Made by a program: the position numbers and the translations under genes
Shown: piece after piece, positions 2 through 36,400 of the stretch
Numbering within the stretch: the stretch's first letter is position 1
Layout of the letters: each line of letters starts with the position of its first letter
Notes under the pieces: model-generated
What the model was told of the DNA's origin: nothing
What the model saw: the letters and a program-made list of their open reading frames with translations, nothing else
The model's database searches: none
Assembly (NCBI GenBank): GCA_964475205.1
Contig: CAYYVQ010000005.1
Location: forward strand, 6,158-70,157
From: an uncultured Victivallales bacterium
Lineage (GTDB): Bacteria; Verrucomicrobiota; Kiritimatiellia; UBA8416; CAYSRM01
Direction of reading: 5' to 3'
Length of the DNA: 64,000 bases

Positions 2-1687
2 CCGATCGGGACCTTGTCCGGTCTGGTAGGCGTCAACGGCCAACTGTACTTTGCGGTTAATAACTATCTGGCGCGCTGTAACCCTGACGGCTCCAACCTC
101 GATATTCTGGCAGCGGCGCACAGGGCGGAAAGCGAATCCGCCCTCGATAATACGGCATCCAGAGGCGGGTGGAGAATCCACGGCATTGTCCGGGATAGAA
201 AAGGCAGGCGCCTGATCTTTCCCGTAAAGTTCACGCGAGGCGGCAACGGCATGTTCGCCTACAATCTGGATTCAAACGCCATCACGAAGCTGGAAGCCAG
301 GCCCGTGTCGTTCGAGGGTAAAGACAATATTCACAAGAGTTATGTCTGGCACGGAAGCATCCACATGAAACCATACCAAAAGGATGCGTTCCTGTTGCAA
401 GGGAGCGACTTCAGGGCCCATCTTTTTGAACCCGACAAGAAAACCATCTTGCTGTACGTTGGAGGTTTCTGGGGCTTCGAGTACGCTGTAGCCCGCACAA
501 CGCGTTCAAAAGAGCCATTTCGCAAGGGTCGAGGAATGTCTCTTCTGGAAAAGGATGGCTTTGTGATCCATTCCGACTGGGACGGGCTGTTCCAGATTGT
601 GGGGCCAAAGTCCGATGGCAAGGCGACAAATCCGCGGTGGGCCGCTGAACTTCCGGACAAGAAAGCACCGGTATTTCTGGCGGAACATGGCGGAAACATC
701 GTAGCCGTAACGCGCTATGGTGTGTGGCTGCTTGAGTTTTCGTCCTCTCCTGAGGTTCATGATGCGGAAAAGCAAGACAAGGAAGCTCCGGTGGGATCGA
801 CTGGGCGTCTGACAGTCAGGTCGCCTGTTGGCGGCACGCTCAGGTTGGATGATGAAGCGCCTTACAGGTTCTGGCCGAATCGTCCGCTGAACTGGAGTCA
901 CCTTCCCACAGGCAGGCACAAAGTCACGTTTGATTGGTGCGGCAGGAAGTGGACCCAGGTTATTCATATCAACGAAGCCGAGCGAACGGATATTACCGTT
1001 TTCCCCAAAGCCGGCATCGAGAAGACAATGAAGCTGAAGCTTGGCCGGGGTGTGGATATTAAGCTGACATGGATTCCGCCGGGGAAAGGCAAGATGGGTG
1101 ACAAAGCCAAGGGAGAGCTTGCCGACATAAGCATTGATGACGGATTCTGGATGGGGATTTATGAAGTCACAGTCGAGCAGTTTCGTACCGTCATGGACTT
1201 GCCTCGCCCCGATATATTCGAAGGTGACCGATACCCTGCTACCTCCGTGTCCTGGGAACAGGCAAAAGAATTCTGTCGCCGCCTGACGGCGCAGAACTCC
1301 GCTACATTGGATGGGATGGTCGTACGCCTGCCGAGCGAGGTGGAATGGGAATATGCCTGCCGGGCAGGTACAGAGACATTGTACTATACGGGTGAGACGC
1401 GCGACTCGATGGCAACGACACAACCCGATCTACGTCAGCCGCTCTTTGATGGCATTAAAGAGCGAAGACTCGAAGCGCGCTGCGTGGCCATAGGACAACG
1501 GACTCCCAATCTTTTCGGGCTGCATGACATGTGCTCAAATGTGGCCGAGTGGTGCCTGAACACGCGGAAGGAAGCCCCGGTCTATCGTTTCGGCTTAACC
1601 GGACGTCTACGCTACTCGGATATGCGGTTCGAAACACCGCCGTGGTACAACGGATTTCGTATTGTGATCGCCAAGCCCGTACCGTAG
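2..1687 (+). CDS. FGE-sulfatase (SUMF1/formylglycine-generating enzyme) domain protein, 5' partial (reading frame is open to the window edge)
   Basis: C-terminal ~250 aa carry the FGE-sulfatase hallmarks (GFWMGIYEVTVEQF, SVSWEQAKEFC, RLPSEVEWEYACRAGT, NLFGLHDMCSNVAEW). The N-terminal half is unassigned. There is no stop upstream in frame. Confidence 0.6.
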   Translation, partial: PIGTLSGLVGVNGQLYFAVNNYLARCNPDGSNLDILAAAHRAESESALDNTASRGGWRIHGIVRDRKGRRLIFPVKFTRGGNGMFAYNLDSNAITKLEARPVSFEGKDNIHKSYVWHGSIHMKPYQKDAFLLQGSDFRAHLFEPDKKTILLYVGGFWGFEYAVARTTRSKEPFRKGRGMSLLEKDGFVIHSDWDGLFQIVGPKSDGKATNPRWAAELPDKKAPVFLAEHGGNIVAVTRYGVWLLEFSSSPEVHDAEKQDKEAPVGSTGRLTVRSPVGGTLRLDDEAPYRFWPNRPLNWSHLPTGRHKVTFDWCGRKWTQVIHINEAERTDITVFPKAGIEKTMKLKLGRGVDIKLTWIPPGKGKMGDKAKGELADISIDDGFWMGIYEVTVEQFRTVMDLPRPDIFEGDRYPATSVSWEQAKEFCRRLTAQNSATLDGMVVRLPSEVEWEYACRAGTETLYYTGETRDSMATTQPDLRQPLFDGIKERRLEARCVAIGQRTPNLFGLHDMCSNVAEWCLNTRKEAPVYRFGLTGRLRYSDMRFETPPWYNGFRIVIAKPVP

Positions 1688-1806
1688 GTCAGCACACTGA
1701 GAGTAAATAAAACATACTGGATGTCCTGGCCGGTTGAAGCCGTATCGACATTGATCAAGATCGGCTGAGAAAGCAAAATCGTTGAAATGAAGCAACATGC
1801 ACACTC

Positions 1807-1970
1807 CTAGCCCGCATTTCTCACACTCCTCCGGCATTATTGCAGGCCAAAACCGGTTTACCGATCTCGCGGTGTGTCTACACAGCGAGAGCCCGGACAA
1901 AACGGGTTCGACCCACACTGCCAATACTCCGAACCGTTTCTGCTCGAAAAAGTGTGATCAATGCGGGCTA
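1807..1970. repeat. MITE family B, complete copy (~164 bp, TIR TAGCCCGCATTTCTCACACT / AGTGTGATCAATGCGGGCTA)
   Basis: Terminal inverted repeats read directly. The internal sequence recurs, split in two, at 5709-5790 and 6110-6182. Confidence 0.7.
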
Positions 1971-2021
1971 GTACACCAGCAAAACATGAGCGCTCGTATC
2001 AGATTTCGCTGTATATCCGGT

Positions 2022-2708
2022 TTACTTGCCGCCGTGCGGACATTCCTTCAGGGAAAGGAACCAGTCGAGGCGCTTTATTTCCTCACCTGATGTTTCCATG
2101 CGTTCTTTTGCTGCGCCGCAGGATCCCGGGGGCGGAACAATCACGTCGTCGCCAATCTCCCAGTTCGCCGGAGTGGCAATGTTATGCTCGTCAGAATGCT
2201 GCATGGCAATCAACAGGCGTTTGACCTCCTGCATATTGCGCCCGTTAGACAGCGGATAATACAGAATCGCGCGGACTATAGCCTCGGGGTCGATAATGAA
2301 CACGGCCCGTACTGCCTGTGTCGTGCTTGCCGCCGGCTGAAGCATGCCGAAAGCTTTTGACACATCCATTGTAAGATCGCTGATTACCGGGAAGTTAACC
2401 TCCACGTCTTTCATGCCGTTGTACTCTATCTTCTCCTTGATAGTGCGCAGCCAGGCAATATGGCTGTACGTGCTGTCGATCGACAGTCCCAGCAGCTCGC
2501 AGTTCAACTCTTTGAACTCATCGGCCATGCTGGCGAATGTCATGAACTCGGTTGTGCACACGGGGGTGAAATCGGCCGGATGCGAGAAGAAAACAACCCA
2601 CTTTCCCTCGTAGTCCTTCGGAAAGCTGATCATTCCCTGTGTTGTCTCAGCCTCGAATTCCGGCGCTTTCTCCCCGATCAACGGCATTTTATCTGATTGC
2701 TCACACAT
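2022..2708 (-). CDS. peroxiredoxin (1-Cys/Prx6-like, AhpC/TSA family)
   Basis: FTPVCTTE peroxidatic Cys motif. AGGAGAAGG Shine-Dalgarno 3 nt before the ATG at 2708. The ORF-track start at 2804 is an N-terminal over-extension. Confidence 0.85.
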   Translation of the reverse strand: MCEQSDKMPLIGEKAPEFEAETTQGMISFPKDYEGKWVVFFSHPADFTPVCTTEFMTFASMADEFKELNCELLGLSIDSTYSHIAWLRTIKEKIEYNGMKDVEVNFPVISDLTMDVSKAFGMLQPAASTTQAVRAVFIIDPEAIVRAILYYPLSNGRNMQEVKRLLIAMQHSDEHNIATPANWEIGDDVIVPPPGSCGAAKERMETSGEEIKRLDWFLSLKECPHGGK

Positions 2709-2754
2709 ATACCTTCTCCTTTCGTAATTTTTTCTTTTCTCCTTCTCTCCACCC

Positions 2755-5619
2755 TTACTCTTTCCTGGAAACTCTCGCGCGCGCACGCAAACCGTCATTT
2801 TCAAAAGTGATCCCGAAGTGCGCGCCGCTGAACTGACTCAGTGGTTCGGGCACATCCTGGGCGGTATCCGGTTTTCCCGGGTGGCCATATACTGTGGATG
2901 CCATAGTCTGATAAGCTTTGTCCCAAACGTAAGAGCCGCCGCCCGGGCAGACAAGCCGGACGCCCCATCTGTCCTGGTGGAATTTTACCGGTTTTTTTTC
3001 ACCAAAGCGTCTGCGCCATTCGTTAAGGATTATCAGGTTCGCCCAGGATCTTTGCCGGTAGGCCCGCGTCAGGCTCTCGCGGTAAAGGTTTTGTAACACG
3101 GAGAGCGCTCCACCTTTGACCTGTGCGGCAACACTTTTGCCAAGCCAGAGGCGTTCAGGGGTGATTCCGGAACCTTTTTCTTTCCGTTTTTTGTTTCTTG
3201 CTGCCCAGCGGTCCAGGCTGCGCTTGACAACATTCTCGTTAGGGCTGAGCATCAGCATCTCACCGCTGACAGCATAATAGATCGCCATATCCTGTTGGTT
3301 GTCCGAATCCTGCATTGTGCTCCGCGCCTGGGCGGACGGGGAGACACGCACATATGACAAATCATTGTGTTTCCGTGTTTCCCAGTTTGTCATGCCGGGA
3401 GCTGTCTCGTTGATATAACTGCGCATCGCAGCAAGGAACCCGGTCAGCTTGAACCCGTTGGCAACATCCACGGTCAGGGCCAGGGGAAGCTGCCAGATGT
3501 TGCGCTCCATGAAATCCTCGGCTGCGTCCAAGCCCTTCTCCTTTGTCAATTTGTCCAACTCCTGCCACATGGGATCGCGATCCACGTAGATTCCTATCCA
3601 GTTGCCTATCCAGTCCAGTAGTCCGACCCGAAGCCCCGGGGCCATCTGGCTGGCAAAACTGGAGATGCCCCGCACCTGCTCCGCTTCTTTGTCCAGGGAC
3701 ATAACGAAGTGCAGCATCGATTCTTCGTGAATGTCGCCATCGGCGGGGGCAACGTCTGCGTTGCCCGTTACTGCCATAACAGGCCGGTAATCGCTCCCGG
3801 AAATCAGGGGACGAACGGTCATGTCTGCTTCCAGCCAGTCTTCTCCTGTCAGGAAACGCACGGCTATAGGGTCAAAATAGGCCCTCCAGTTACGCTGATA
3901 TTGCCGCCGGAAAAGTTGATATGCATCCGCCTCGACTTTAGTCGCAGTTTCGATTGAAAGCTCCCTTATGGGCGTCAGGAAAGCAAGAGTTCCATAATTT
4001 TCCGAAGCTATTCCTTGCGGTGTCAGGAACAACTTGCCCAAACCTGGCACGGGCTCTTTCAGCTTGATTTCTTGTGTTTTCTCGACACCTTTATCAAGCT
4101 TTTCAAGATAACGCGCCTGCAGTTCCATCATTGCTGCAGCCGCCCTCGAGCGCCTTGACGCGCCGATACGCCATTTCGGGCTGCACCAGCGTCTTATCGT
4201 TGCGTCGGTCAAGACGAGAAAAGCCGTTTCCTTGGCTTTTAACCGATAACGGTCGCGGAAATATATGTATTCGGGAGCATCTGCCAGTGAGGGCAGATCT
4301 TTATGTCCTGTCTTCAGAATCAGTTCCATTTGAGGAACCGAATTGGCAACAATAACCAGGTTGCTTTTAGCGGCAACATACGAAGAGATTTCGCGCCAGC
4401 GGTTCGAGACGCCGGTGTACTTAATGCCGCCTGCCATACCGCTTATATTGGCGGCATCCCCGGGTGCGGCGACTTTATGCCGGTTGGCAATCAGCATTGA
4501 CAGGGCTTCGGGCTTTTCTGCTTCAAATATAACAGCTACGTCCGAACCCGTCCGCAGATAAGGATCGGAACCTGTAATTGCGGCGGTCCTGACCATGCCC
4601 GAAGCCAGTAGCTTCGAGAGTTTGTCCGTTTGCAGACACAACTGTTTCTCATATCTTTCCCGGGTCCAGGCATCCTCGGCCCGGGGCTCCAGAAGGTGCA
4701 ACACCGGCGTGCCCCGCTTCTGCGCCTCGGCCATGGTTTCAACCATATCATTGAAAGAGGGGAAGAACACTGCATGTTGATCCATGGGTATTGTTGAAGC
4801 AATGGGATCCTTGCCCGGCTCCATACCTTCTATGGCTTCACTCCAGTCCATTTCTGCTGTTGTTATTCCCTGGATATCACTGAGAGCCACCGTCTCTTCG
4901 TCTTTTCCCGGATTCAGTCGCAAAACACGGTCAAGCTGAAGATTCTCGCTTACCGCCCTGCCTCCGGTGAACAGGTTGTACGTTTGCTGAATGTCGCCGA
5001 CGCCGGGATTGGCATCACGTTCGGCTGCAATATCGATAGGCGAAACCGCTTGCAATGTTTTTCCCATGCCGGCCAATCTGGCTGACAGCATCTCGTGCCT
5101 GAACCATGCGCTGCCCGGAACTCTTAGATTTAATAGACGCCGGTAATGTCTTTCTTTTGCCTGGTAGAACAGTTTTTTTGCCTCCGACTGCGATTCACCC
5201 CCCCCGTCTATTTTGAATTCCAGTTTTTCCATGCCCGACCAGTCGTTGCGCGGAATATACAATTTGCCAGTGGCGGCTTTTCCCTGCGCAACCTTGATTG
5301 CTACGCGGCTTCTAGATACATTTACCCCGGTAGAATCTGAGGGTCTCCAAGCCTCGCCTGAAATGTCCACGTACACTTCCGTGTCGGCATTGCCCACGGC
5401 ATAGGGCTGCATATGGGTTTGCAGCAACATACGTCTACGCCACGGCACCCTTTGAGAATCAGCGTCCTTGTCTATCTTTGTCTTTGGGATTTCCCCTTCA
5501 ACCAGGGGCAGATCCGTCAGCGGAAAATAATAAAAATCCTCGGCCAGGCCGGGGGCGCACAGCAGGCAGAGAAGAGCAGTTCCGAAGAGACAGGTTTTAG
5601 CGGGGTTGTATTTTAGCAT
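2755..5619 (-). CDS. large secreted hypothetical protein (954 aa, N-terminal signal peptide)
   Basis: Long uninterrupted ORF with a hydrophobic N-terminus (LFGTALLCLLCAPGLA). No recognisable catalytic motif. Confidence 0.5.
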   Translation of the reverse strand: MLKYNPAKTCLFGTALLCLLCAPGLAEDFYYFPLTDLPLVEGEIPKTKIDKDADSQRVPWRRRMLLQTHMQPYAVGNADTEVYVDISGEAWRPSDSTGVNVSRSRVAIKVAQGKAATGKLYIPRNDWSGMEKLEFKIDGGGESQSEAKKLFYQAKERHYRRLLNLRVPGSAWFRHEMLSARLAGMGKTLQAVSPIDIAAERDANPGVGDIQQTYNLFTGGRAVSENLQLDRVLRLNPGKDEETVALSDIQGITTAEMDWSEAIEGMEPGKDPIASTIPMDQHAVFFPSFNDMVETMAEAQKRGTPVLHLLEPRAEDAWTRERYEKQLCLQTDKLSKLLASGMVRTAAITGSDPYLRTGSDVAVIFEAEKPEALSMLIANRHKVAAPGDAANISGMAGGIKYTGVSNRWREISSYVAAKSNLVIVANSVPQMELILKTGHKDLPSLADAPEYIYFRDRYRLKAKETAFLVLTDATIRRWCSPKWRIGASRRSRAAAAMMELQARYLEKLDKGVEKTQEIKLKEPVPGLGKLFLTPQGIASENYGTLAFLTPIRELSIETATKVEADAYQLFRRQYQRNWRAYFDPIAVRFLTGEDWLEADMTVRPLISGSDYRPVMAVTGNADVAPADGDIHEESMLHFVMSLDKEAEQVRGISSFASQMAPGLRVGLLDWIGNWIGIYVDRDPMWQELDKLTKEKGLDAAEDFMERNIWQLPLALTVDVANGFKLTGFLAAMRSYINETAPGMTNWETRKHNDLSYVRVSPSAQARSTMQDSDNQQDMAIYYAVSGEMLMLSPNENVVKRSLDRWAARNKKRKEKGSGITPERLWLGKSVAAQVKGGALSVLQNLYRESLTRAYRQRSWANLIILNEWRRRFGEKKPVKFHQDRWGVRLVCPGGGSYVWDKAYQTMASTVYGHPGKPDTAQDVPEPLSQFSGAHFGITFENDGLRARARVSRKE

Positions 5620-13027: not shown

Positions 13028-15694
13028 ATGAGGCAATACAAGAACAAAGCATCACAAGCCAATACAATAATCTTCGGCAACGCCAGGTTCCAGTTCATGA
13101 CCGACCGGCTGCTCAGAATGGAATACAGCAGCACGGGTTGTTTTGAAGACAGGGCAACCCTGACGGTGGTGAACAGGTCATTTCCCGCTGTCAAATGGCA
13201 TAAAGAAGTAAAAGATAATGTGCTGGTTCTGACAACCTCGGCGCTTACCCTCACCTACACCGATGATGGAAATGTGTTCTCAAATGACAACCTGCGCATT
13301 GATTTCGATTGCAACGGAACCAGAAAATGCTGGCATCCCGGAATGGATAATAATGGCAATCTGGGGGGTACGCTTCGAACTCTTGACGGCATGGAAGGCA
13401 ATAGAAAAATAAAAAAAGTTCCGAATCCTGATTTTATCCCTAACAGGGAAGGCAAGAAAAAGACAGGCGCTCCCGGCCAGAGTTTGACTGAGTTCATATC
13501 AGTCAACGAGCCTGTTGACCTTGGCAGCGGGCTTGTCTCACGAGCAGGCTGGACAATTATAGACGATACGAGAAGTGTTGTGCTGGACGAGAACAACGGA
13601 TATGAATGGGTTGCCGCGCGCCGCGACGGGGGTGATGCCGATCTGTATTTTCTGGGATACGGCACTGATTACAAGGCCGCGCTCAAGGACTGTGCCAATT
13701 TGCTCGGGCGGCAACCCCTACCCCCTCGCTATGCTTTCGGTTGCTGGTTCTCAAGGTACTGGGCATATACGGATCAGGAGATTGAGGAGATTGTTAACGC
13801 ATTTGACATAGCGGATGTTCCTCTAGATGTTATCGTTGTCGATATGGACTGGCACCTTGAGGGCTGGACCGGTTACACGTGGGACAAACGTTATTTCCCT
13901 GATCCTGATGAATTCCTTTCGGAAATGCATCGTCGCGGACTCAAGGTCACACTTAACCTGCACCCGGCCGAAGGCGTCAAAAAGCACGAGGATCAATTCA
14001 AGGATATGGCAGTAGCCATGGGTCTTGATCCCGAAAAAACCAACCAGGTCTTGTTTGATATCACAGACCCAAATTACGTCAAAGCCTATTTTGACATATT
14101 GCATCATCCGGAGGAACGCAGGGGCGTGGACTTCTGGTGGATGGATTGGCAGCAGGGTGAAAGCACCAAACTGACAGGGCTTGACCCTCTTCCATGGATC
14201 AATCACCTGCACTGGTATGATATGGTTGACAATCCGGACAGAAAAAATAAACGTCCGCTGATATTCTCCCGGTGGGGAGGACTCGGAGGTGGCCGGCACT
14301 GTATCGGTTTTTCAGGTGACACTTATTCCACATGGGAATCGCTCGCCTTTCAACCTTACTTCACCGCTACTGCGGCAAATGTCCTATACGGCTACTGGTC
14401 CCATGATATTGGAGGACATATGCCGGGTGAGATCGAGCCTGAACTGTTTACCCGGTGGCTGCAGTTCGGCGCCTTTTCGCCCATTCTCAGAACGCACACA
14501 ACAAAAAACGAGAACGCCGAACGAAGAGTTTGGGAATATCCCGCACCCTATAGTCATATCATGATGGAGACAATACGAAAACGATATGAACTGGTTCCCT
14601 ATGTCTATACCGAATGCAGGAAAGCCTATGACACGGGAATAAGCCTGTGCCACCCCATGTATTATGATTGGCCCGGCTCGGATGCGGCATACAAAGCGCG
14701 CAACCAATACATGTTCGGCGACTCCATGCTCGTTGCCCCCGTTATAGAAAAACAATCCGAAATTGATCATATGGCTCCGGCAAATGTCTGGCTTCCCAAG
14801 GGCGAATGGTTCGACACGGCGCGGGGGCTGACCCTTGCAGGGGACAACATGATTACCGCAAGGTATGCCATCGACGAAGTGCCTGTATTTGTGCGGCCAG
14901 GCGCCGTGATCCCCGGCGAGAAAGGCAGGCGGCGACTGAACAACACATCAATTGAACACCTGCTCGTTACCATTTATTCCGGAACCGAAGGGGCTTATAC
15001 ACTTTACGAGGATGACGGGATGTCATCGGGCTATGAAAAGAACAGATGCGTTGCCCTGAGGATATCGCACCGCAGAAAAGGAAAACTCTGGAAGATTATG
15101 ATCGATAAACCCGAAGGTTCATATAAGGGATTCCAAAGCAAAAAAAGCATAGAGCTAAGAATCGAGGGAACGGTTCCACCCGAATCTGTCAGGGGCGCAG
15201 GCAAAAAGATTCCGTTTTCGTTCAGACCGCGGGAAGGGAACTTCTGGAACTATGACGGGAACAAAGCAACCCTGGTTGTGTCCCTTAACCGGCAGGAATT
15301 GAAAAACGGGCTGGAAATCAGCGTGAGACTTTCGGACACGTCCCTGTCATCCATTGAGGCATGGAAAGGGCTGATGAATCGAATGAGCCGGGTCAGGTAC
15401 TTCAACACATTAGCAATCACCCTTGGCGTTGCTCACGAAGAAAAACTGCTCGGGATTGATCTTGCGCAGGCCGGTAACAGGATAAGCCGGAACCCGGCTT
15501 CGCTCAGGAATGAAGTCGCCCGGACACGAAAACGCCTCAAGGAGGCCTCCGACATGCTGAACTACCTGAAATGCCATCATAGCGGCACAGGCAAAAAGAA
15601 GAGCACAGGAAGGCGGCGGCCTGAGAAAGTCCCGTATTGCGCGAAAGCCCTGGCGATCCTTGATGAATGTCATGCCCTGTGTCAAAAGCAATAG
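13028..15694 (+). CDS. glycoside hydrolase family 31 (alpha-glucosidase/alpha-xylosidase-like) with a C-terminal extension
   Basis: DVIVVDMDWH, GVDFWWMDWQ, and RPLIFSRWGGLGGGRHCIGFSGDTYSTWESL...YWSHDIGGH, which aligns with the conserved GH31 catalytic region. Confidence 0.8.
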   Translation: MRQYKNKASQANTIIFGNARFQFMTDRLLRMEYSSTGCFEDRATLTVVNRSFPAVKWHKEVKDNVLVLTTSALTLTYTDDGNVFSNDNLRIDFDCNGTRKCWHPGMDNNGNLGGTLRTLDGMEGNRKIKKVPNPDFIPNREGKKKTGAPGQSLTEFISVNEPVDLGSGLVSRAGWTIIDDTRSVVLDENNGYEWVAARRDGGDADLYFLGYGTDYKAALKDCANLLGRQPLPPRYAFGCWFSRYWAYTDQEIEEIVNAFDIADVPLDVIVVDMDWHLEGWTGYTWDKRYFPDPDEFLSEMHRRGLKVTLNLHPAEGVKKHEDQFKDMAVAMGLDPEKTNQVLFDITDPNYVKAYFDILHHPEERRGVDFWWMDWQQGESTKLTGLDPLPWINHLHWYDMVDNPDRKNKRPLIFSRWGGLGGGRHCIGFSGDTYSTWESLAFQPYFTATAANVLYGYWSHDIGGHMPGEIEPELFTRWLQFGAFSPILRTHTTKNENAERRVWEYPAPYSHIMMETIRKRYELVPYVYTECRKAYDTGISLCHPMYYDWPGSDAAYKARNQYMFGDSMLVAPVIEKQSEIDHMAPANVWLPKGEWFDTARGLTLAGDNMITARYAIDEVPVFVRPGAVIPGEKGRRRLNNTSIEHLLVTIYSGTEGAYTLYEDDGMSSGYEKNRCVALRISHRRKGKLWKIMIDKPEGSYKGFQSKKSIELRIEGTVPPESVRGAGKKIPFSFRPREGNFWNYDGNKATLVVSLNRQELKNGLEISVRLSDTSLSSIEAWKGLMNRMSRVRYFNTLAITLGVAHEEKLLGIDLAQAGNRISRNPASLRNEVARTRKRLKEASDMLNYLKCHHSGTGKKKSTGRRRPEKVPYCAKALAILDECHALCQKQ

Positions 15695-18834: not shown

Positions 18835-19890
18835 TTAATACTGTCCGTTGCTTACTTCAAAGTGGGTCGGTTTGCCCAGGCTTCCACCGCCTTGCCTGAT
18901 CCAATCGGCTGTTTTGCCGATCATTTCCTCGACCGGCATTCCCGGCGAGCCGAACAGCTGCACCGATTTGGACGCATCGGCCAGGTATGCGCGATCGCCC
19001 GGCTTGCCCTCGAACGTCACGGCCTTTTCCATTTTTTCGCCGAGCCGGGTAGCCACATCACGCACTGACAGGGTCTCCTTGCCTGTCACATTCAGTATTC
19101 GGGCTGGAACCCGGCAATGCTCAAACGAAAGCAAAGCAAACTCATTGGCATCGCGTTGCCAGATACAGTTGAAGGTTGGCACACGGAGCGGTACAGGCCG
19201 CTCTTCCCATATCCATTTGGCAATATCGTGAAGCACTCCGTAGCGCAGATCGATTGCGTAATTGAGCCTGAAAAGGAGAGTCGGCGTCTGGGCTGCATCA
19301 CAATAATACTCGAAAATGCGCTCACGACCCAGGCATGCCTGGGCGTACTCTCCAACTGGTCCCGGTTGTGTGCTTTCATTGCACCCCGGTCCCCGGGGAT
19401 TCACCAGGGGATATACGCAACCGGTGCTGAATACGACTATCCTGGCTCCGGAAAATCTTCGGCATATGTTTGCGGGCGCAACCGTATTAATCGCCCATGT
19501 TGCAGGTTCTGACCCGGCGGTCCCGAACTTGCGCCCGACCATGTAGATGATATTGTCCGTGTCGGGCAATTCGGCTACTTCGTCGGGATCCAGCAGATTA
19601 CAAGGTATGGTTTCGACTCCGTGTTCTTCCAGCCAATCCCGTGCGGCCGAATCCGAGAATCGCGATATGCCCATTACACGTTTTTTAACGCCGGCTTCAT
19701 GAATCGCGCGCACTGCCATGGCCCCTAGTGTAAGGCCCATTTTTCCGCCTATTCCCAAAATCGCGATATCCCCGTCGATACGGCGCATCATTTGGATTAA
19801 CGGATTGCCTGGCCGCGATAGAGTTTCATCCAATTCAGTTTCCGAAGTCATTGTCCAAACCTTTCCCAATTTCCCTGTTTTCCCTGCCAA
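18835..19890 (-). CDS. NAD(P)-dependent epimerase/dehydratase family protein (atypical SDR)
   Basis: Rossmann motif ILGIGGKMG and SDR-like architecture. Confidence 0.7.
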   Translation of the reverse strand: MAGKTGKLGKVWTMTSETELDETLSRPGNPLIQMMRRIDGDIAILGIGGKMGLTLGAMAVRAIHEAGVKKRVMGISRFSDSAARDWLEEHGVETIPCNLLDPDEVAELPDTDNIIYMVGRKFGTAGSEPATWAINTVAPANICRRFSGARIVVFSTGCVYPLVNPRGPGCNESTQPGPVGEYAQACLGRERIFEYYCDAAQTPTLLFRLNYAIDLRYGVLHDIAKWIWEERPVPLRVPTFNCIWQRDANEFALLSFEHCRVPARILNVTGKETLSVRDVATRLGEKMEKAVTFEGKPGDRAYLADASKSVQLFGSPGMPVEEMIGKTADWIRQGGGSLGKPTHFEVSNGQY

Positions 19891-30646: not shown

Positions 30647-31621
30647 TTAGAGGAGCCCTGTCAACAGTTTGACTGCATTGTCGAAATCGTGGTAGTTGAC
30701 TGTTTCCGAAGAAGAATGCAGATACCGGCACGGAATTGAAAGACAGCCCGACTCAACGCCGCTTTGAGAAGTCTGAATAGCGCGCGCGTCAGTCGAGCCA
30801 AACCCGAGCACTTCAATTTGATATGGAATGCGGCGCTTTTCTGCGGTTTCAATCATTAACTCCTTGACCCTGGGTGAAGCGAGCATCCCTCCGTCTTTTA
30901 TTTTTACCGCGGGCCCCTTGCCGAGTTCAATCGCCATCTTATAAGGGGGTTCGGGTGTGTCAGGACAAGCCGTGACATCCACCGCAATGCCCATGTCAGG
31001 CTCTATGCCGTAAGCGCCGGTAATGGCCCCGCGCAATCCGACTTCTTCCTGGACACTGAACACAAAATATACGTCATGGGTTGATTTCTTTAATGCCCGT
31101 AAAACCCCTATCAATACCGCGCAACCAATCCGATCATCTAAGGCTTTCGCAATGATGTTATCACCGCGCTTCTCCATTCCGCTGTCAAAACAAGCTGCGT
31201 CACCCACCTTCACCGGATTGCTGCGGTCATTCCCGCTCACATCCACAAAAAGTTTGTCAAATTGCGGGATTTTTTTCTTATCGTCCTGTTTTTCCATGCC
31301 GATAACGCCTATCGTTCCATCAGCAAAACGCACCCTTTTGGTAACAGCACATAAAGGATTAACCCCGCCGATAGGATTGACCCTCAGAAAACCGCGCTGG
31401 TCAATGTATGCAACAATCACACCGATCTCGTCCATGTGCGCGGAAAGCATCACCTTGCGTCCGTTGCCGGCGCCTTTTTTCAATACAATTAAATTACCCA
31501 GCGCATCGACCCTGATGTCATCGGCCAGACCGTCAAGTTCGCTCTTTATGATTTCACGCACATGTTCTTCATGCCCAGACGGTCCATAAGCTTCAACCAG
31601 CTTCTTTATTACTTCTTTCAT
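30647..31621 (-). CDS. M42 family aminopeptidase (FrvX/TET-like), paralogue 1
   Basis: M42 metal-ligand motifs. Start at MKEVIKK matches the paralogue N-termini. Confidence 0.8.
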   Translation of the reverse strand: MKEVIKKLVEAYGPSGHEEHVREIIKSELDGLADDIRVDALGNLIVLKKGAGNGRKVMLSAHMDEIGVIVAYIDQRGFLRVNPIGGVNPLCAVTKRVRFADGTIGVIGMEKQDDKKKIPQFDKLFVDVSGNDRSNPVKVGDAACFDSGMEKRGDNIIAKALDDRIGCAVLIGVLRALKKSTHDVYFVFSVQEEVGLRGAITGAYGIEPDMGIAVDVTACPDTPEPPYKMAIELGKGPAVKIKDGGMLASPRVKELMIETAEKRRIPYQIEVLGFGSTDARAIQTSQSGVESGCLSIPCRYLHSSSETVNYHDFDNAVKLLTGLL

Positions 31622-31758
31622 CTCTGCTTTGCCTTTCGCGTCTTTCAAAAATCTTTCCTTTTTTATGTTCCTTGCGTTTTCTGAGGTTCTTCTTCCTGGC
31701 AACCAATGACCAATGACACGCGCGAAGCGAGTAAATAACTAATGATTTCTCTTTTCCC

Positions 31759-32775
31759 CTACAACCGTTGCATAATCTTCAGCATAAGTTTTACGGTGTT
31801 GTTCAAATCTTTTTTGCTCATCATCGAAACCGGCGAATGAATATAGCGGCATGGAGCCGAAACTGCCACAGTAGGGACTCCTCTGCGTGCAAGATGAATA
31901 GCCCCGGCGTCAGTCCCTCCCTGGCCCGGCTGTTTAATCTGATACGGAATCTTTTCCTCTTCCGCGGTCGAAATCAATAACTGTACCATGTCTTTGTCGG
32001 CAATCATGGTTTTATCCATAACACTGATGGCCGGGCCTTTGCCCAGCTCTGTTGTCGGACTGATATCCTTATCTTTTGGCGAGTCATCGCAAATGGTTCC
32101 TTCAAGCACAAATGCCGCATCCGGTTCAATCCCGAAAGCCGCCACCCGCGCACCGCGTAATCCGACTTCTTCCATTGTTGTGAACACCGGATAGAAATCA
32201 AACGGATACGGTCCGGCCTTGATCAGTTCAATTAACGCTGCACAGCCAGCACGGTCATCAAAAGCCTTGCCCTTAACCACGCCGCCCAGATCTTCAAATT
32301 CAGTTGCAAATACCGCGTAATCTCCCTGGTTGACCAACTTTTCAGCCTCCTCGCGACTGCTCACCCCGATATCAATAACCATCGCGTCATGCTTGATGAT
32401 TTTTTTGCGCTCATCCGGAGGGGTAAGATGCACCGGCTTGATGCAAATCAAACCTGGGACACGGTCTTTTCCAATCAAAACTTTCTTGGCAGGCAGAACA
32501 CGGTCATCTATTCCGCCGACCTTCTGGAAAAAAAGCAGACCTTTTTCATTGGCGTGTGAAATCATCAGTCCGATCTCATCCATGTGCGCCGCCATCATTA
32601 TCTTCCGCCGTTTTCGCCCCGTGCCCTTTTTGAACCCCAGCAGATTGCCAAGAGAATCAACCCGCAGGCTGTCCACATTCGAACGGACTGCTGATATGAT
32701 GATATCTCTCACAGCAGATTCATCGCCGGCCACACCCGCCGCATTTGACAGTTTTTCAAGTGTTTTCAGTTTCAT
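31759..32775 (-). CDS. M42 family aminopeptidase, paralogue 2
   Basis: M42 family motifs. Confidence 0.8.
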   Translation of the reverse strand: MKLKTLEKLSNAAGVAGDESAVRDIIISAVRSNVDSLRVDSLGNLLGFKKGTGRKRRKIMMAAHMDEIGLMISHANEKGLLFFQKVGGIDDRVLPAKKVLIGKDRVPGLICIKPVHLTPPDERKKIIKHDAMVIDIGVSSREEAEKLVNQGDYAVFATEFEDLGGVVKGKAFDDRAGCAALIELIKAGPYPFDFYPVFTTMEEVGLRGARVAAFGIEPDAAFVLEGTICDDSPKDKDISPTTELGKGPAISVMDKTMIADKDMVQLLISTAEEEKIPYQIKQPGQGGTDAGAIHLARRGVPTVAVSAPCRYIHSPVSMMSKKDLNNTVKLMLKIMQRL

Positions 32776-32809
32776 TATATTTTGCGCTTACAACCCTTCG
32801 CCGCATACC

Positions 32810-33877
32810 CTATTTAATTTCACGTGAAAGTTTATCGATAAAAACGTTGTCAAGGCCGGCGATAAAATGCGCCAGCAATCTTCCCGTCCGTTCAACATCT
32901 TTAACCTGCAGCATTTCCACCGGTGTGTGCATGCTGCGCAAAGGAATACTCAGCAAAGCGGTTGGTATCCCGGCACGGGTTAGCTGTATGGCATTGGCAT
33001 CAGTGCCGGTGCCGCGGGTGCAGATTTCTGTTTGAAAAGGAATTTCATGTTGCAGGGCTGTTTTACGCAAAGCTTCAAACATTTCCGGGTGGATATTCGG
33101 CCCCCTGCACAACGCAGGACCTTTACCCAGTTCAACCGCATTTAACGCTTCCGGAATGCCGGGTTGTTTGCCGAAACCGACATCAATCGCAATTCCGATA
33201 TCCGGGGCAACACTGTAAGCGCCGGTAATTGCTCCGCGCAACCCGACTTCCTCCTGTACCGTGGCCACAGCGTAAACATCCCACGAATGGGTCAAATTGC
33301 GCAATTGCTCCATGCAGCAGGCAATTGCAGTGACCGATGCCCGGTCATCAAAGGCCTTGCCGCTTACATGACCGTTCTGTAACTCGGTGAATCCGCCGCG
33401 GATTGAAATCAAATCGCCTGGACGCACGTTCTTTTCCAGTTCTCTGGCGGTCAGGCCTGTATCAATAAAAAGCTCATCCATTGGCGCCGGTTTGGAACGT
33501 TCCTGTTCATTCAACACATGCGGCGGACGGGAACCGATAATTCCGGGCAACCGCCGCTTTCCGTGAACAAGCACCTCGCGTCCCGGCAATGTGCGCACGT
33601 CAAATCCGCCTACTTGTGTAAAACGGATGAATCCTTTCTCCAGAACTGTAACAATCAGCCCGATCTCATCCATATGCCCGGCAAGCATAATCCGCCATCG
33701 TGCTGTATTGCTCTTTCCGTGCCCCTGTTTCAAGGCAATCAGGTTTCCCATTGCGTCAACACGAACATCGTCCGCGAAGGCGCCGAACTGTTCGCGCACA
33801 ATCTCGCGAATCTCTTCCTCATAGCCGGAAACCCCGTTCGCCTCGGACAATTGTTTAAGAAACGAAACTGTGTTCAC
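32810..33877 (-). CDS. M42 family aminopeptidase, paralogue 3
   Basis: M42 family motifs. Confidence 0.8.
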   Translation of the reverse strand: MNTVSFLKQLSEANGVSGYEEEIREIVREQFGAFADDVRVDAMGNLIALKQGHGKSNTARWRIMLAGHMDEIGLIVTVLEKGFIRFTQVGGFDVRTLPGREVLVHGKRRLPGIIGSRPPHVLNEQERSKPAPMDELFIDTGLTARELEKNVRPGDLISIRGGFTELQNGHVSGKAFDDRASVTAIACCMEQLRNLTHSWDVYAVATVQEEVGLRGAITGAYSVAPDIGIAIDVGFGKQPGIPEALNAVELGKGPALCRGPNIHPEMFEALRKTALQHEIPFQTEICTRGTGTDANAIQLTRAGIPTALLSIPLRSMHTPVEMLQVKDVERTGRLLAHFIAGLDNVFIDKLSREIK

Positions 33878-33995
33878 TTTTCCCTGCCTATTCCCAAAAT
33901 AAAATAATCCGTGGAATCAACTTGTAAAAGGAATGTAAGCTATTGCCTCAGGTCAATGCAACGTCTTTTGGCTTCTGGTAAGAATCTTAGGAATC

Positions 33996-35322
33996 TTAGG
34001 GACACACCTTTTATATTTACGGATCATATAGATCAATCTCAAAACGTTACCCGCATGAAGAATCTATATTAACAGGAGAAATACAAGGCCCAGCCTGACC
34101 TCTGCGCGCGGACTCAGCCGGTGTGTTGCCATGACATAACCACATCACCCGGCATTCCCTGCCATTTCATTGAATCCGGGCGCTATCTGACCTTGCAACC
34201 ATACCCTTGGGCTGTGCTACACCGTGTCAGCTGCCCGCAGGCGCCGACACCGCCTCAAGCCGCAGGTCACGCATAGTGCATAACCCGCCCCAGTCACCAC
34301 AGCGCATCGCTCTTGCCCCGCTTTTGCGTTTCAGCCCGAACTCATTCCGGTATCGCCTGTATATGCCTTCAACATATTCTCGGCTGCCCAGAACTACCCC
34401 GTCTGAAAAATACCTTACGCGGCAGCGCAACACTTCAGCTTTCGGCAACCTGCCACCTTCTTCCAGTACCTGACGCACCTTCTCATAGGAAAAACCTATC
34501 CTGCCGGATGTCTGTTCTCCCCGCATATACAACAGCTTGCGATATTTATGGCTCACCTGACCCCATACCGCCGTCCCAGGATCAAGAGACAGCATCACGC
34601 TTCCCAACCCCTGCCTGGCTCTCCTGCCTCCTGCCATAGCTTCCGCGTAGCCGCAATAACGGTAATTGCGGGGATCTGACACGGTTCCTGACCTGACCGG
34701 GTTAAGGTCTATGTACGAGGCCATCATGATCAAGACATTCTCGCTGTTTTCCACCAGTATGCTTTTAAATCGCTCCTCCCACAATGTGCCGCGCCTGACA
34801 TTGTTACGGTTATACCACATGGAAAAACGCTGCTTGAGCGTCTTCATGAACTGCGAGACGTCATACATCCGGTACAGGTATTTCTCCCGAAGCTGCCTCA
34901 CATAGGCTTCCTGATTATCTTCCCTGGCCTCCTTAAGCAGCCTTTCATACTCGGCCACAAAGGGTTTTGAATACAGCAGCCTCATTCTCTCAAGAAGCTG
35001 ATCATCGTCTATTTCCTGCCTTTCAGGAACATGGACAAGGATATGGAAATGATTGCCCATCACCGCATAGGTAAGGATATTGACCCCGCAGAAACCCTCC
35101 ACCTTGCGCATCATCTTCCTGAATACTTCCTTTTCCACATCACCCAGAACCATCCTGCGCTCTATCACCCTGGACATGCAATGATAGTACCCGCCTTCTT
35201 CTATCTTGACCCGTGCCGTGCGCATAATACCTCCCCGCTCAGAAATTCATACATTTGCTGACTTTCAGCAAAGTGTACACCGTAGCGCATTCCATTGCAA
35301 CTTATTAATGGTGTGTCCCTAA
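33996..35322 (-). mobile_element. IS-like unit (~1.33 kb) bounded by perfect 13-bp inverted repeats TTAGGGACACACC / GGTGTGTCCCTAA and carrying a single RAYT-like gene
   Basis: TIRs read directly at 33996-34008 and 35310-35322. Tandem AATCTTAGG AATCTTAGG at the left end. Confidence 0.45.
34227..35225 (-). CDS. HUH/Y1 transposase of the IS200-like / REP-associated tyrosine transposase (RAYT) type, long form (332 aa)
   Basis: N-terminal YHCMSRVIERR, HUH motif HFHILV, catalytic-Tyr region SYIDLNPV. Confidence 0.7.
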   Translation of the reverse strand: MRTARVKIEEGGYYHCMSRVIERRMVLGDVEKEVFRKMMRKVEGFCGVNILTYAVMGNHFHILVHVPERQEIDDDQLLERMRLLYSKPFVAEYERLLKEAREDNQEAYVRQLREKYLYRMYDVSQFMKTLKQRFSMWYNRNNVRRGTLWEERFKSILVENSENVLIMMASYIDLNPVRSGTVSDPRNYRYCGYAEAMAGGRRARQGLGSVMLSLDPGTAVWGQVSHKYRKLLYMRGEQTSGRIGFSYEKVRQVLEEGGRLPKAEVLRCRVRYFSDGVVLGSREYVEGIYRRYRNEFGLKRKSGARAMRCGDWGGLCTMRDLRLEAVSAPAGS

Positions 35323-35760
35323 TTACCTTCCGTTGGAAGGAATATTACTACGCTATTGCCAAGAACTGGAACAGCGGTTGGGGAGAATTATATCGTTCGA
35401 AAGACGGCTTGACACCGTTTGACTCCAGGGGAAGATTCGTTTACAGACTGCGGCATTGTGCTGTTATGCTTCGCGACAATCAGCTTCTCGTATTCTATAC
35501 TGTGGCAGGTGAGATGGGTATAGCGATGGCAGAACTTGACATCAAAATCAAGTAGACGGCAGATCAAGATGAACGTGGTCACGGTCGCGAAAGCGCCTGA
35601 AACCCGCATGCGGGTTAGCCCTCTGCGATTTGGGCCGTCAAAAGCATTTGGGAAGAAATGCTGTTATGCCGGCCGCATTATTTGTGCGGAATCAAGTGAA
35701 GAATTGCTGGCTTATATTGACGATGCTGATATCATAATGCGAAAAGTTAGTTAAAACACC

Positions 35761-35858
35761 GGGTCGTAGCGCAGCCTGGCAGCATCCCGACCTCTGCGCC
35801 AAATCGCGAGAGTCGGGGCTTTGGAAACTGAAAGTCGTGGGTCAAATCCCACAGTACA
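35761..35858 (+). pseudogene. degenerate tRNA-like element (tRNA-Pro-like 5' end and D-arm, ~30-nt hairpin insertion, mutated T-loop, non-pairing 3' end)
   Basis: CGGGTCGTAGCGCAGCCTGGCAGC...GTGGGTCAAATCCCAC shares the 5' acceptor and D-arm with the adjacent tRNA-Pro, but the acceptor stem cannot close. Confidence 0.35.
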
Positions 35859-35859
35859 G

Positions 35860-35936
35860 CGGGGCGTAGCGCAGCTTGGCAGCGCGTCAGCTTTGGGAGC
35901 TGAAAGTCGTGGGTTCGAATCCCACCGCCCCGACCA
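35860..35936 (+). tRNA. tRNA-Pro (anticodon UGG)
   Basis: 77 nt. 7-bp acceptor CGGGGCG/CGCCCCG, D-arm GCGC/GCGC, anticodon stem TCAGC/GCTGA with loop TTTGGGA, T-arm GTGGG-TTCGAAT-CCCAC, encoded CCA. Confidence 0.9.
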
Positions 35937-35939
35937 TTT

Positions 35940-36400
35940 GGTATATTCCAGACACAACAGTAACTTTCAGATCCATATCAAACTTGTTTCCGATAAAGGG
36001 ATGAGAACCCACGAAGTGGGTTTGTCTACCTCAATGCGGGAGCTTCGAGGTAGTGGCTGGCCTTGAGCCAGCCCCGAAGGGCAAGGCCGTCGGGCGACGG
36101 CCGCAGCAATCCCACCGCCCCGACCATTTCGGATTTTTCCCGCCGTCGGCGGAAAAATCCGAAATGGTCGAGCCTCCTTCGAGATATCCGAACCTGGTTC
36201 GAGGGCCACTATCGGCGATCCTGACCGACCCCCGCGCTTCGCGCGGTGATACTACCCCGGCAGGCCGCCCGCCAGCGCTCCGCGCTGTCATGCGTCCTGC
36301 TCCTACCCGCACCCGCCGTGACAGCTTCGCTGGCGGCCTGCCTGCATAGTACCCGAGGCGCGAAGCGCCGCGGGGGGTACCGTCTACCGTTCATGACGGG
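35940..36400. repeat. cluster of REP-like palindromes/hairpins downstream of tRNA-Pro, ending in a ~180-nt GC-rich imperfect rod hairpin
   Basis: Hairpins AACCCAC/GTGGGTT, CTACCTC/GAGGTAG, GGCTGG/CCAGCC, CGGCCGTCG/CGACGGCCG, CGGATTTTTCCGCC/GGCGGAAAAATCCG. Long-range pairing CCCCCGCGCTTCGCGCG...CGCGAAGCGCCGCGGGGGG. Confidence 0.5.
36106..36129 (+). repeat. direct repeat of the tRNA-Pro 3' end (AATCCCACCGCCCCGACCATTT), attR-like
   Basis: 23/23 identical to 35914-35939, about 190 bp downstream of the tRNA. Confidence 0.6.

Follow-up and report, generated by a model that had tools for sequence, protein, structure and literature searches.

The TIR-bounded unit and the chance alternative

Why does a RAYT-like Y1/HUH transposase gene lie between perfect terminal inverted repeats (TIRs), when the usual flanks of RAYT genes are inverted REPs (PMC3733652, PMC6006769)? 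The question is raised by positions 33996–35322 of a 64,000-nucleotide (nt) stretch of contig CAYYVQ010000005.1 from an uncultured Victivallales bacterium; this whole stretch is called the window. An earlier note had seen there a HUH/Y1 gene of 332 amino acids (aa) inside perfect 13-bp repeats, and had offered three explanations: an unusual TIR-bounded HUH element, a RAYT captured inside another element, or chance. We conclude, with a probability of about 0.8, that the 1.33-kb unit is a TIRtron, that is, an insertion sequence (IS)-like element with one TIRYT gene, its own promoter, and 13–20-bp TIRs whose GGGACA(C/G) core is the end signature. Elements of this kind have already been described, and the window adds a further member from a branch of the protein tree without reported TIRs. 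The features that carry this reading are as follows.

33983–34000, junction-spanning 9-nt tandem duplication, AATCTTAGG twice (copies at 33983–33991 and 33992–34000)
33996–34015, gene-distal TIR, TTAGGGACACACCTTTTATA on the plus strand, with its outer edge at 33996 as the element boundary
34227–35225, minus strand, intact gene for a Y1/HUH (TIRYT-type) transposase of 332 aa, with a ribosome-binding site GGAGG at about 35232–35236
35303–35322, gene-proximal TIR, TTAGGGACACACCATTAATA on the gene strand, with core GGGACAC

Direct reading of the letters identified the perfect 13-nt inverted pair, TTAGGGACACACC at 33996–34008 on the plus strand and GGTGTGTCCCTAA at 35310–35322, as the earlier note had described it. 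A repeat search lengthened the pair to 20 nt with 18 of 20 matches (90% complementarity; TTAGGGACACACCTTTTATA at 33996–34015 and TATTAATGGTGTGTCCCTAA at 35303–35322). TTAGGGACACACC and its reverse complement are the sole two exact copies in the window. The shared end of the proximal repeat probably reaches 2 nt further outward (AATTAGGG...). An inverted 13-mer could surround an ordinary IS200-like gene by chance, and nothing beyond its single occurrence in the window speaks for this. Segments of 250 and 100 nt, set 1 kb apart, were compared at 19,377 random window positions. None of these placements (0/19,377) had a perfect inverted repeat of 13 nt or more, and the longest was 12 nt. Chance is rejected because no random placement reaches 13 nt and because the repeat is conserved in many independent homologous loci; we regard this alternative as already refuted.

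The two arms are not self-complementary hairpins, and a folding test found no self-folding in either. We also looked for subterminal hairpins in the style of IS200. The distal end has none that is significant; the proximal end has a leader hairpin and one just outside the TIR, with none within it. The outer hairpin, CCTTCC-GTT-GGAAGG (6-bp stem, 35326–35340), lies 3 nt outside the gene-proximal TIR and could be a target feature or unrelated. Target-site duplications, a point raised in the earlier note, and other direct repeats around the ends were seen at none of the loci examined, although a palindromic TA at the extreme edge would be indistinguishable from the repeat itself. Two candidates, a GGTAA match that extends outside both arms in the window and a degenerate flank repeat (TGGTAAGAATCTTAGG versus TGGAAGGAATATTACT, 11/16), were judged not significant.

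Conservation of the ends in related loci

The GGGACA(C/G) core keeps company with the gene family from 43% to 99% protein identity, at near-constant spacing. In a comparison set of 80 metagenomic loci with 42–58% identity, about 55 have GGGACA 40–130 nt ahead of the start codon, within a context consensus of AAAGGGACAGGCTAATAAT and then a TTGAC(A) box. An inverted GGGACA-core partner was found downstream in 14 loci. In these, the core lies 40–123 nt upstream, the inverted copy ends 201–283 nt downstream in 13 and 384 nt downstream in one, and the units are 1,267–1,420 bp long. Of 14 positions beyond the core, 8.8 match when the arms come from one element and 6.0 when they come from different loci.

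All four loci (cited here by number) that have at least 68% identity and span both ends contain the pair (the window, L001, L097, and L098). The most complete case is L001, from a Lentisphaerales metagenome-assembled genome (MAG), in which a gene with 69% aa identity sits in a 1,273-bp unit with a perfect 19-nt TIR (TAAGGGACACACAATATAT at 3904–3922 and 5158–5176). L098 (69%) has AAGGGACACACCAT(A/G)TAT at each end, and L097 (69%) has TAAGGGACA(T/C)ACAA at each end. The proximal end of L099 (73% aa identity) is the identical 20-mer to the distal end of the window element. The end AATTAGGGACACACC occurs in both L010 (92% aa identity) and L099, with differing flanks. A scan of IMG/VR for AATTAGGGACACACC produced 11 single matches, as chance predicts for a 15-mer in that collection.

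The repeats might instead belong to another element, either a miniature inverted-repeat transposable element or the shell of a DDE-type IS, that captured a RAYT gene and is moved in trans. DDE insertion sequences typically are units of this kind, about 1.3 kb long and bounded by TIRs. The explanation, the second in the earlier note, is rejected because the core travels with the gene family, the unit has no second transposase, and no target-site duplication was seen at any locus examined. Down to 43% identity, the family keeps both the core and its spacing to the gene, and no other open reading frame with a family match occurs inside the unit. The lack of a flanking direct repeat fits HUH chemistry and not DDE mobilization. 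The motif in the window, AGGGACAC, agrees with the TIRYT consensus GGGGWSAS (main group; PMC3733652) at seven of eight positions (the first G is an A), and GGGGACAG in L027 and L081 agrees at all eight. We therefore consider capture highly improbable and return to a TIR-bounded HUH element, the first explanation in the earlier note, which the conserved core bears out.

Some loci differ from this pattern. In L096 (68% identity), a DUF6788 gene and a DDE_Tnp_1 transposase gene (1364–3071) occupy the expected place of the distal TIR and no inverted arm was found; L096 is probably a TIRtron hit by a secondary IS insertion. A Verrucomicrobia MAG (JAIPKD01) has three contig-end copies (L005–L007) of a more distant homologue with a common upstream end, ...CATTCAGCCTGTTGACA, which differs from the GGGACA end and suggests another multi-copy lineage of long Y1 genes.

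Evidence for mobility

Copies in related genomes bear on the boundary of the unit. The Lentisphaerales MAG JAUXFM01 contains a complete copy (L001) and two that run off their contigs inside the gene, all with similar coverage. The DNA upstream of the three is unrelated and likeness begins exactly at TAAGGGACAC; the outer edge of the repeat is the exact start of multi-copy units in related genomes. Several metagenome contigs stop 10–20 nt outside the motif. In sample SRR21542050, a flank contig (L092) that is 99.93% identical to the window halts exactly 30 nt into the element from 33996, and a contig with the element (L009) from this sample is only 99.07% identical to the window. Logan assemblies presumably use k=31 (k−1 = 30 nt), and we attribute the halt of L092 to an assembly of this kind breaking at sequence found in more than one context.

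The earlier note had proposed to search the genome for further copies. Signs of multiple copies come from related genomes and from a sample carrying this locus; in the window, the 1.33-kb unit (33996–35322) occurs once. A third TIR-like site, TAAGGGACACAAC at 15275–15287 on the minus strand, lies within a GH31 glycoside hydrolase gene (13028–15694) and is probably incidental.

The neighboring genes on the distal side are three tandem M42-family aminopeptidase paralogues (30647–33877, minus strand). This cluster is kept in relatives (L111–L114) and the DNA upstream of it is not. M42 orthologues at 88%, 86%, and 79% each have a different upstream neighbor (a 768-aa gene, MgtC, and a 99-aa gene), and the orthologous clusters of relatives lack the element. 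The intergenic alignment is too weak for a pre-insertion sequence to be defined from these orthologues.

The gene could also be domesticated and immobile, with a host role in the processing of single-stranded DNA. The GGGACAS sites would then be operator or processing sites by the promoter, and the downstream copy would be left over or serve as a further regulatory site. Most class 2 TnpAY1 genes have few copies and are regarded as domesticated (PMC6006769, PMC5581495), and the single copy in the window agrees with this. The upstream motif is far commoner than the downstream one and always lies just 5′ of the TTGAC box, and an identical arrangement recurs at the same site in two other samples. 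These observations are opposed by same-end relatives that are multi-copy with unrelated flanks in one MAG, by contigs that break at the motif, and by SRR21542050, where a variant copy matches the window at 99.07% and the flank at 99.93%. Co-variation between the two arms of an element is a further point, and the relatives' orthologous M42 clusters are without the element. On balance, domestication seems unlikely to us.

Several further findings, together with the recurrence of the arrangement in two samples, weigh against a mobile TIRtron. About 30 of the 43 more distant relatives with enough downstream sequence have no inverted partner; most of these are in a group with 43–47% identity that has GGGACAGG at −55. 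L080 and L091 have a common unit that runs from the motif to about 88 nt past the stop codon and ends without a TIR. In three pairs with GGGACAGG at −55 (L080/L091, L035/L057, and L040/L044), similarity starts at the motif and stops 8–89 nt past the stop codon, with no inverted repeat. Judged from these alignments, a sub-family of relatives appears to have a one-sided end signature. The gene-proximal motif is the universal feature of the family, and the TIR state belongs to a subset that includes the clade of the window. Because the downstream arm is absent in many relatives, the family is not strictly dependent on it, and models in which the two arms pair are weakened. There are no solo repeats in intergenic DNA within the 64-kb window. 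No pre-insertion (empty) site was found in the M42 loci of relatives, which makes both the precise position of the ends and the lack of a palindromic TA duplication provisional. A Pfam search recovered no recognizable DNA-binding fold in the C-terminal domain of the protein, and transposition or TIR cleavage by this class is a prediction.

Tandem duplications at the junctions

The tandem AATCTTAGG pair at 33983–34000, which the earlier note had also reported at the left end, consists of 4 nt of flank and the first 5 nt of the distal repeat. Of 68 element ends scanned, 9 have tandem duplications of 9–20 nt lying across or directly against the outer edge of the core. The rate at randomly chosen anchors in these sequences is 38 of 12,892 (0.3%), an enrichment of about 45-fold at the ends. 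Further copies of the end, longer or spaced, occur in L001 (three direct), L032, L034, and L051. The repeat at the left end in the window belongs to a family-wide pattern. These duplications may be scars of end breakage and repair, which would fit nicks in or beside GGGAC.

The transposase and its closest known systems

The 332-aa protein has the motifs HFHILV and SYIDLNPV, with the HUH histidines at H59 and H61 (HFH, residues 59–61) and YIDLNP at 171–176, in which Tyr171 is the predicted catalytic residue. NHFH and LWEERF are further motifs. Pfam Y1_Tnp matches at 2.9e-14, and two NCBIfam models are missed (REP_Tyr_transpos, 65.6 with a cut-off of 80; transpos_IS200, 20.9 with a cut-off of 55). 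Its family is very large and well conserved, with at least 7,980 proteins found, and the best 120 listed are mostly 324–358 aa long. H59, H61, and Y171 are invariant across an alignment of 40 homologues. In an AlphaFold (AF2) model with a pLDDT of 80.5, a helical insertion of about 55 aa (approximately residues 74–117) separates the HUH strand from the following core helix, the span from HUH to Tyr is 110 residues, and a C-terminal extension of about 130 aa follows the core. The best fold match of the model is 4ER8 (E. coli TnpA_REP), followed by the TnpA proteins of ISDra2 and IS608. A role in defense or in phages was considered and dropped (no PADLOC match; only a weak “transposase” match in PHROG).

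The earlier note had treated TIRs around such a gene as unusual for the class, but TIR-flanked RAYT-like genes were named TIRYT, and the elements TIRtrons, by Di Nocera, De Gregorio, and Rocco in 2013 (BMC Genomics 14:522; PMC3733652). The window element is like these in having a RAYT-like Y1/HUH gene between TIRs rather than REP hairpins, in a distance from TIR to gene that is similar across members, and in TIRs that are at times in direct clusters (three upstream in L001). The half-core GTLWE.R.KS...YI.LNPVRA (GTLWE.RFKS / YI.LNPVR) is held in common with the Hahella TIRYT hch_1378 (36% identity). The window element differs in protein length, since the 26 published TIRYTs are about 220–240 aa long (subclasses 2.1, 2.2, and 2.5, with 20 of 26 in 2.1; PMC6006769) and the window protein has 332 aa with the 55-aa helical insertion after HUH. 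It also differs in what is repeated. The emphasis of the 2013 paper is on solo-TIR families; here the copies contain the gene, and the whole unit is IS-like. TIRs are part of a dispersed genomic repeat family in only some published TIRtrons (PMC3733652); the 64 kb of the window have one further near-match, the site in the GH31 gene, and L001 has the three direct copies of the end. In subclass 2.1, the core of about 111 aa is free of insertions and the C-terminal domain resembles a helix-turn-helix (Bac_DnaA_C, HTH_23, or HTH_28; PMC6006769). The window protein has the insertion, and Bac_DnaA_C, HTH_23, and HTH_28 matched none of the 40 alignment members at E ≤ 1.

In architecture the protein is closer to TnpAY1 subclass 2.3 of Quentin, Siguier, Chandler, and Fichant (2018, BMC Genomics 19:475; PMC6006769). 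Members of that subclass have a median length of 325 aa, the motifs NHYH/WE/YVDLNP, about 3.9 copies per genome, and no REP, and their core of about 172 aa results from a 55-aa insertion between beta3 and alphaC and is followed by a long C-terminal tail with a distal domain particular to the subclass (PMC6006769). Subclass 2.3 roots within 2.1 in the tree, its described members are Chromatiales and Alteromonadales, and TIRs are not reported for it (PMC6006769). The window protein is similar in length (332 versus 325 aa), in motifs (NHFH/WE/YIDLNP), and in the place of the insertion, but identity is only about 25–31%. The nearest genome matches and named M42 homologues point to a different source lineage, probably in the PVC group. 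With a 2.3-type protein from Catenovulum it aligns over the whole core and insertion (25% identity, E 5e-22), and BLASTP did not align the C-terminal domains. The single Catenovulum locus inspected has no GGGACA motif. Upstream of its bona fide subclass-2.3 gene, L095 (889–1188; Catenovulum plasmid pCadTS8_2) has a unit of about 150 nt twice in tandem. A tblastn search of plasmids found distant relatives only (24–42% identity, partial length), mostly from Alteromonadales and Vibrionales.

RAYT/TnpA_REP (REPtron; Nunvar 2010; Ton-Hoang 2012; Messing 2012, PDB 4ER8) is the best structural match; it has the Y...NP motif, and inverted copies of the presumed substrate flank its gene. The TIR resembles half of a GTAG-type REP, with TTAG-GGACACACC ... 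GGTGTGTCC-CTAA in the window and GTAG-GGACAC-loop-GTGTCC as a REP of subclass 2.4 (PMC6006769). Unlike in REPtrons, the arms in the window are not palindromic, no high-copy dispersed repeats occur in the 64 kb, and the protein is twice as long. Elements of IS200/IS605 (IS608, ISDra2) have the HUH/Y1 fold, a single small gene, and no target-site duplication in common with the window element. They have unlike left and right ends with subterminal hairpins, no TIRs, a TnpA of about 150 aa, and a Y...Q motif, in contrast to the TIRs, 332 aa, and Y...NP motif found here.

Other features of the unit and its surroundings

The remaining features of the unit lie between the gene and the two repeats.

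34016–34226, minus strand, 3′ spacer from the stop codon to the distal repeat, kept in length and not in sequence among relatives
34085–34102, minus strand, terminator-like hairpin about 125 nt past the stop codon, by consensus match only
35254–35272, minus strand, 5′-leader hairpin with an 8-bp stem, TTTGCTGA-AAG-TCAGCAAA on the gene strand
35272–35300, minus strand, putative weak sigma-70-like promoter, with TTGCAA at 35300–35295, a 17-nt spacer, and TACACT at 35277–35272

The putative promoter, immediately inward of the proximal repeat, agrees with the consensus at 8 of 12 positions, which is below the threshold of the scan; relatives have a TTGAC(A) box 10–20 nt past the GGGACAGG motif. 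The proximal 120 nt have a folding z of −3.3, and an alignment indicates that the leader hairpin is conserved in L010 only in part. The 3′ spacer is about 200–260 nt long in most relatives. It has no significant fold in the window, and conservation in a nine-locus alignment of this region is confined to the TIR columns. The idea that the 230-nt 3′ spacer contains a conserved RNA or structure was accordingly rejected, and the Rfam matches were to tRNA alone.

On the proximal side, a degenerate second tRNA-Pro-like copy (35756–35858, plus strand) lies directly upstream of tRNA-Pro(TGG) at 35860–35936. Its acceptor and D-arm are 89% identical to those of the real tRNA, a T-arm is present, and about 35 extra nt occur in the anticodon region; neither ARAGORN nor Rfam calls it. 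The 3′ end of tRNA-Pro, AATCCCACCGCCCCGACCATTT, recurs as a perfect 22-nt direct repeat (35918–35939 and 36108–36129), with the second copy 190 nt past the tRNA. After it comes a patch rich in GC (0.66, 36000–36400) that has no long open reading frame. The repeat region resembles an att-type remnant left at tRNA-Pro by an integrative element. A preference of the TIR-bounded element for insertion near tRNAs was rejected: a tRNA is nearby in only 2 of 25 loci, the window (tRNA-Pro) and L001 (tRNA-Glu).

Proposed mechanism and significance

For a TIRtron of this kind, we propose that the encoded enzyme would recognize the GGGACAS core at both ends and nick in or next to it by HUH/tyrosine chemistry, through a 5′-phosphotyrosine intermediate that would leave no target duplication. 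The whole 1.3-kb unit would then move. The tandem duplications across the outer edge of the core point to possible breakage and rejoining at this place. The proximal repeat abuts the promoter, and binding there would probably autoregulate the gene.

The puzzle of the class is how a single-strand-specific Y1 enzyme for hairpin substrates copes with inverted ends. Most economically, pairing of the two arms in single-stranded DNA could rebuild a REP-like stem, with a TTAG head, a GGACACACC stem, and the gene in the loop. In such a split REP, the arms TTAG-GGACACACC ... GGTGTGTCC-CTAA would restore the head and stem recognized by RAYTs across a 1.3-kb loop, movement would resemble peel-and-paste, and the tandem duplications would be nicking scars within the GGGAC core. 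We offer this model tentatively and think it more doubtful than not. If true, it would link IS200/IS605, REP/RAYT, and the classical TIR-bounded insertion sequences both in mechanism and in evolution.

TIR-bounded Y1/HUH elements have a name in the literature, and a full-text search for TIRYT or TIRtron found only Di Nocera 2013 and Quentin 2018, with no biochemical study of the class. The locus and its relatives provide a clean and abundant test case, with at least 7,980 homologues, a compact 1.3-kb unit, a sharply conserved end core, evidence of multi-copy spread, no target duplication, and a recurrent junction scar. They extend the association with TIRs to a long, insertion-bearing architecture like that of subclass 2.3, outside the Proteobacteria in which the subclass was described. 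For annotation, TIRYT and TIRtron are better labels for such genes than “IS200-like” or “RayT”.

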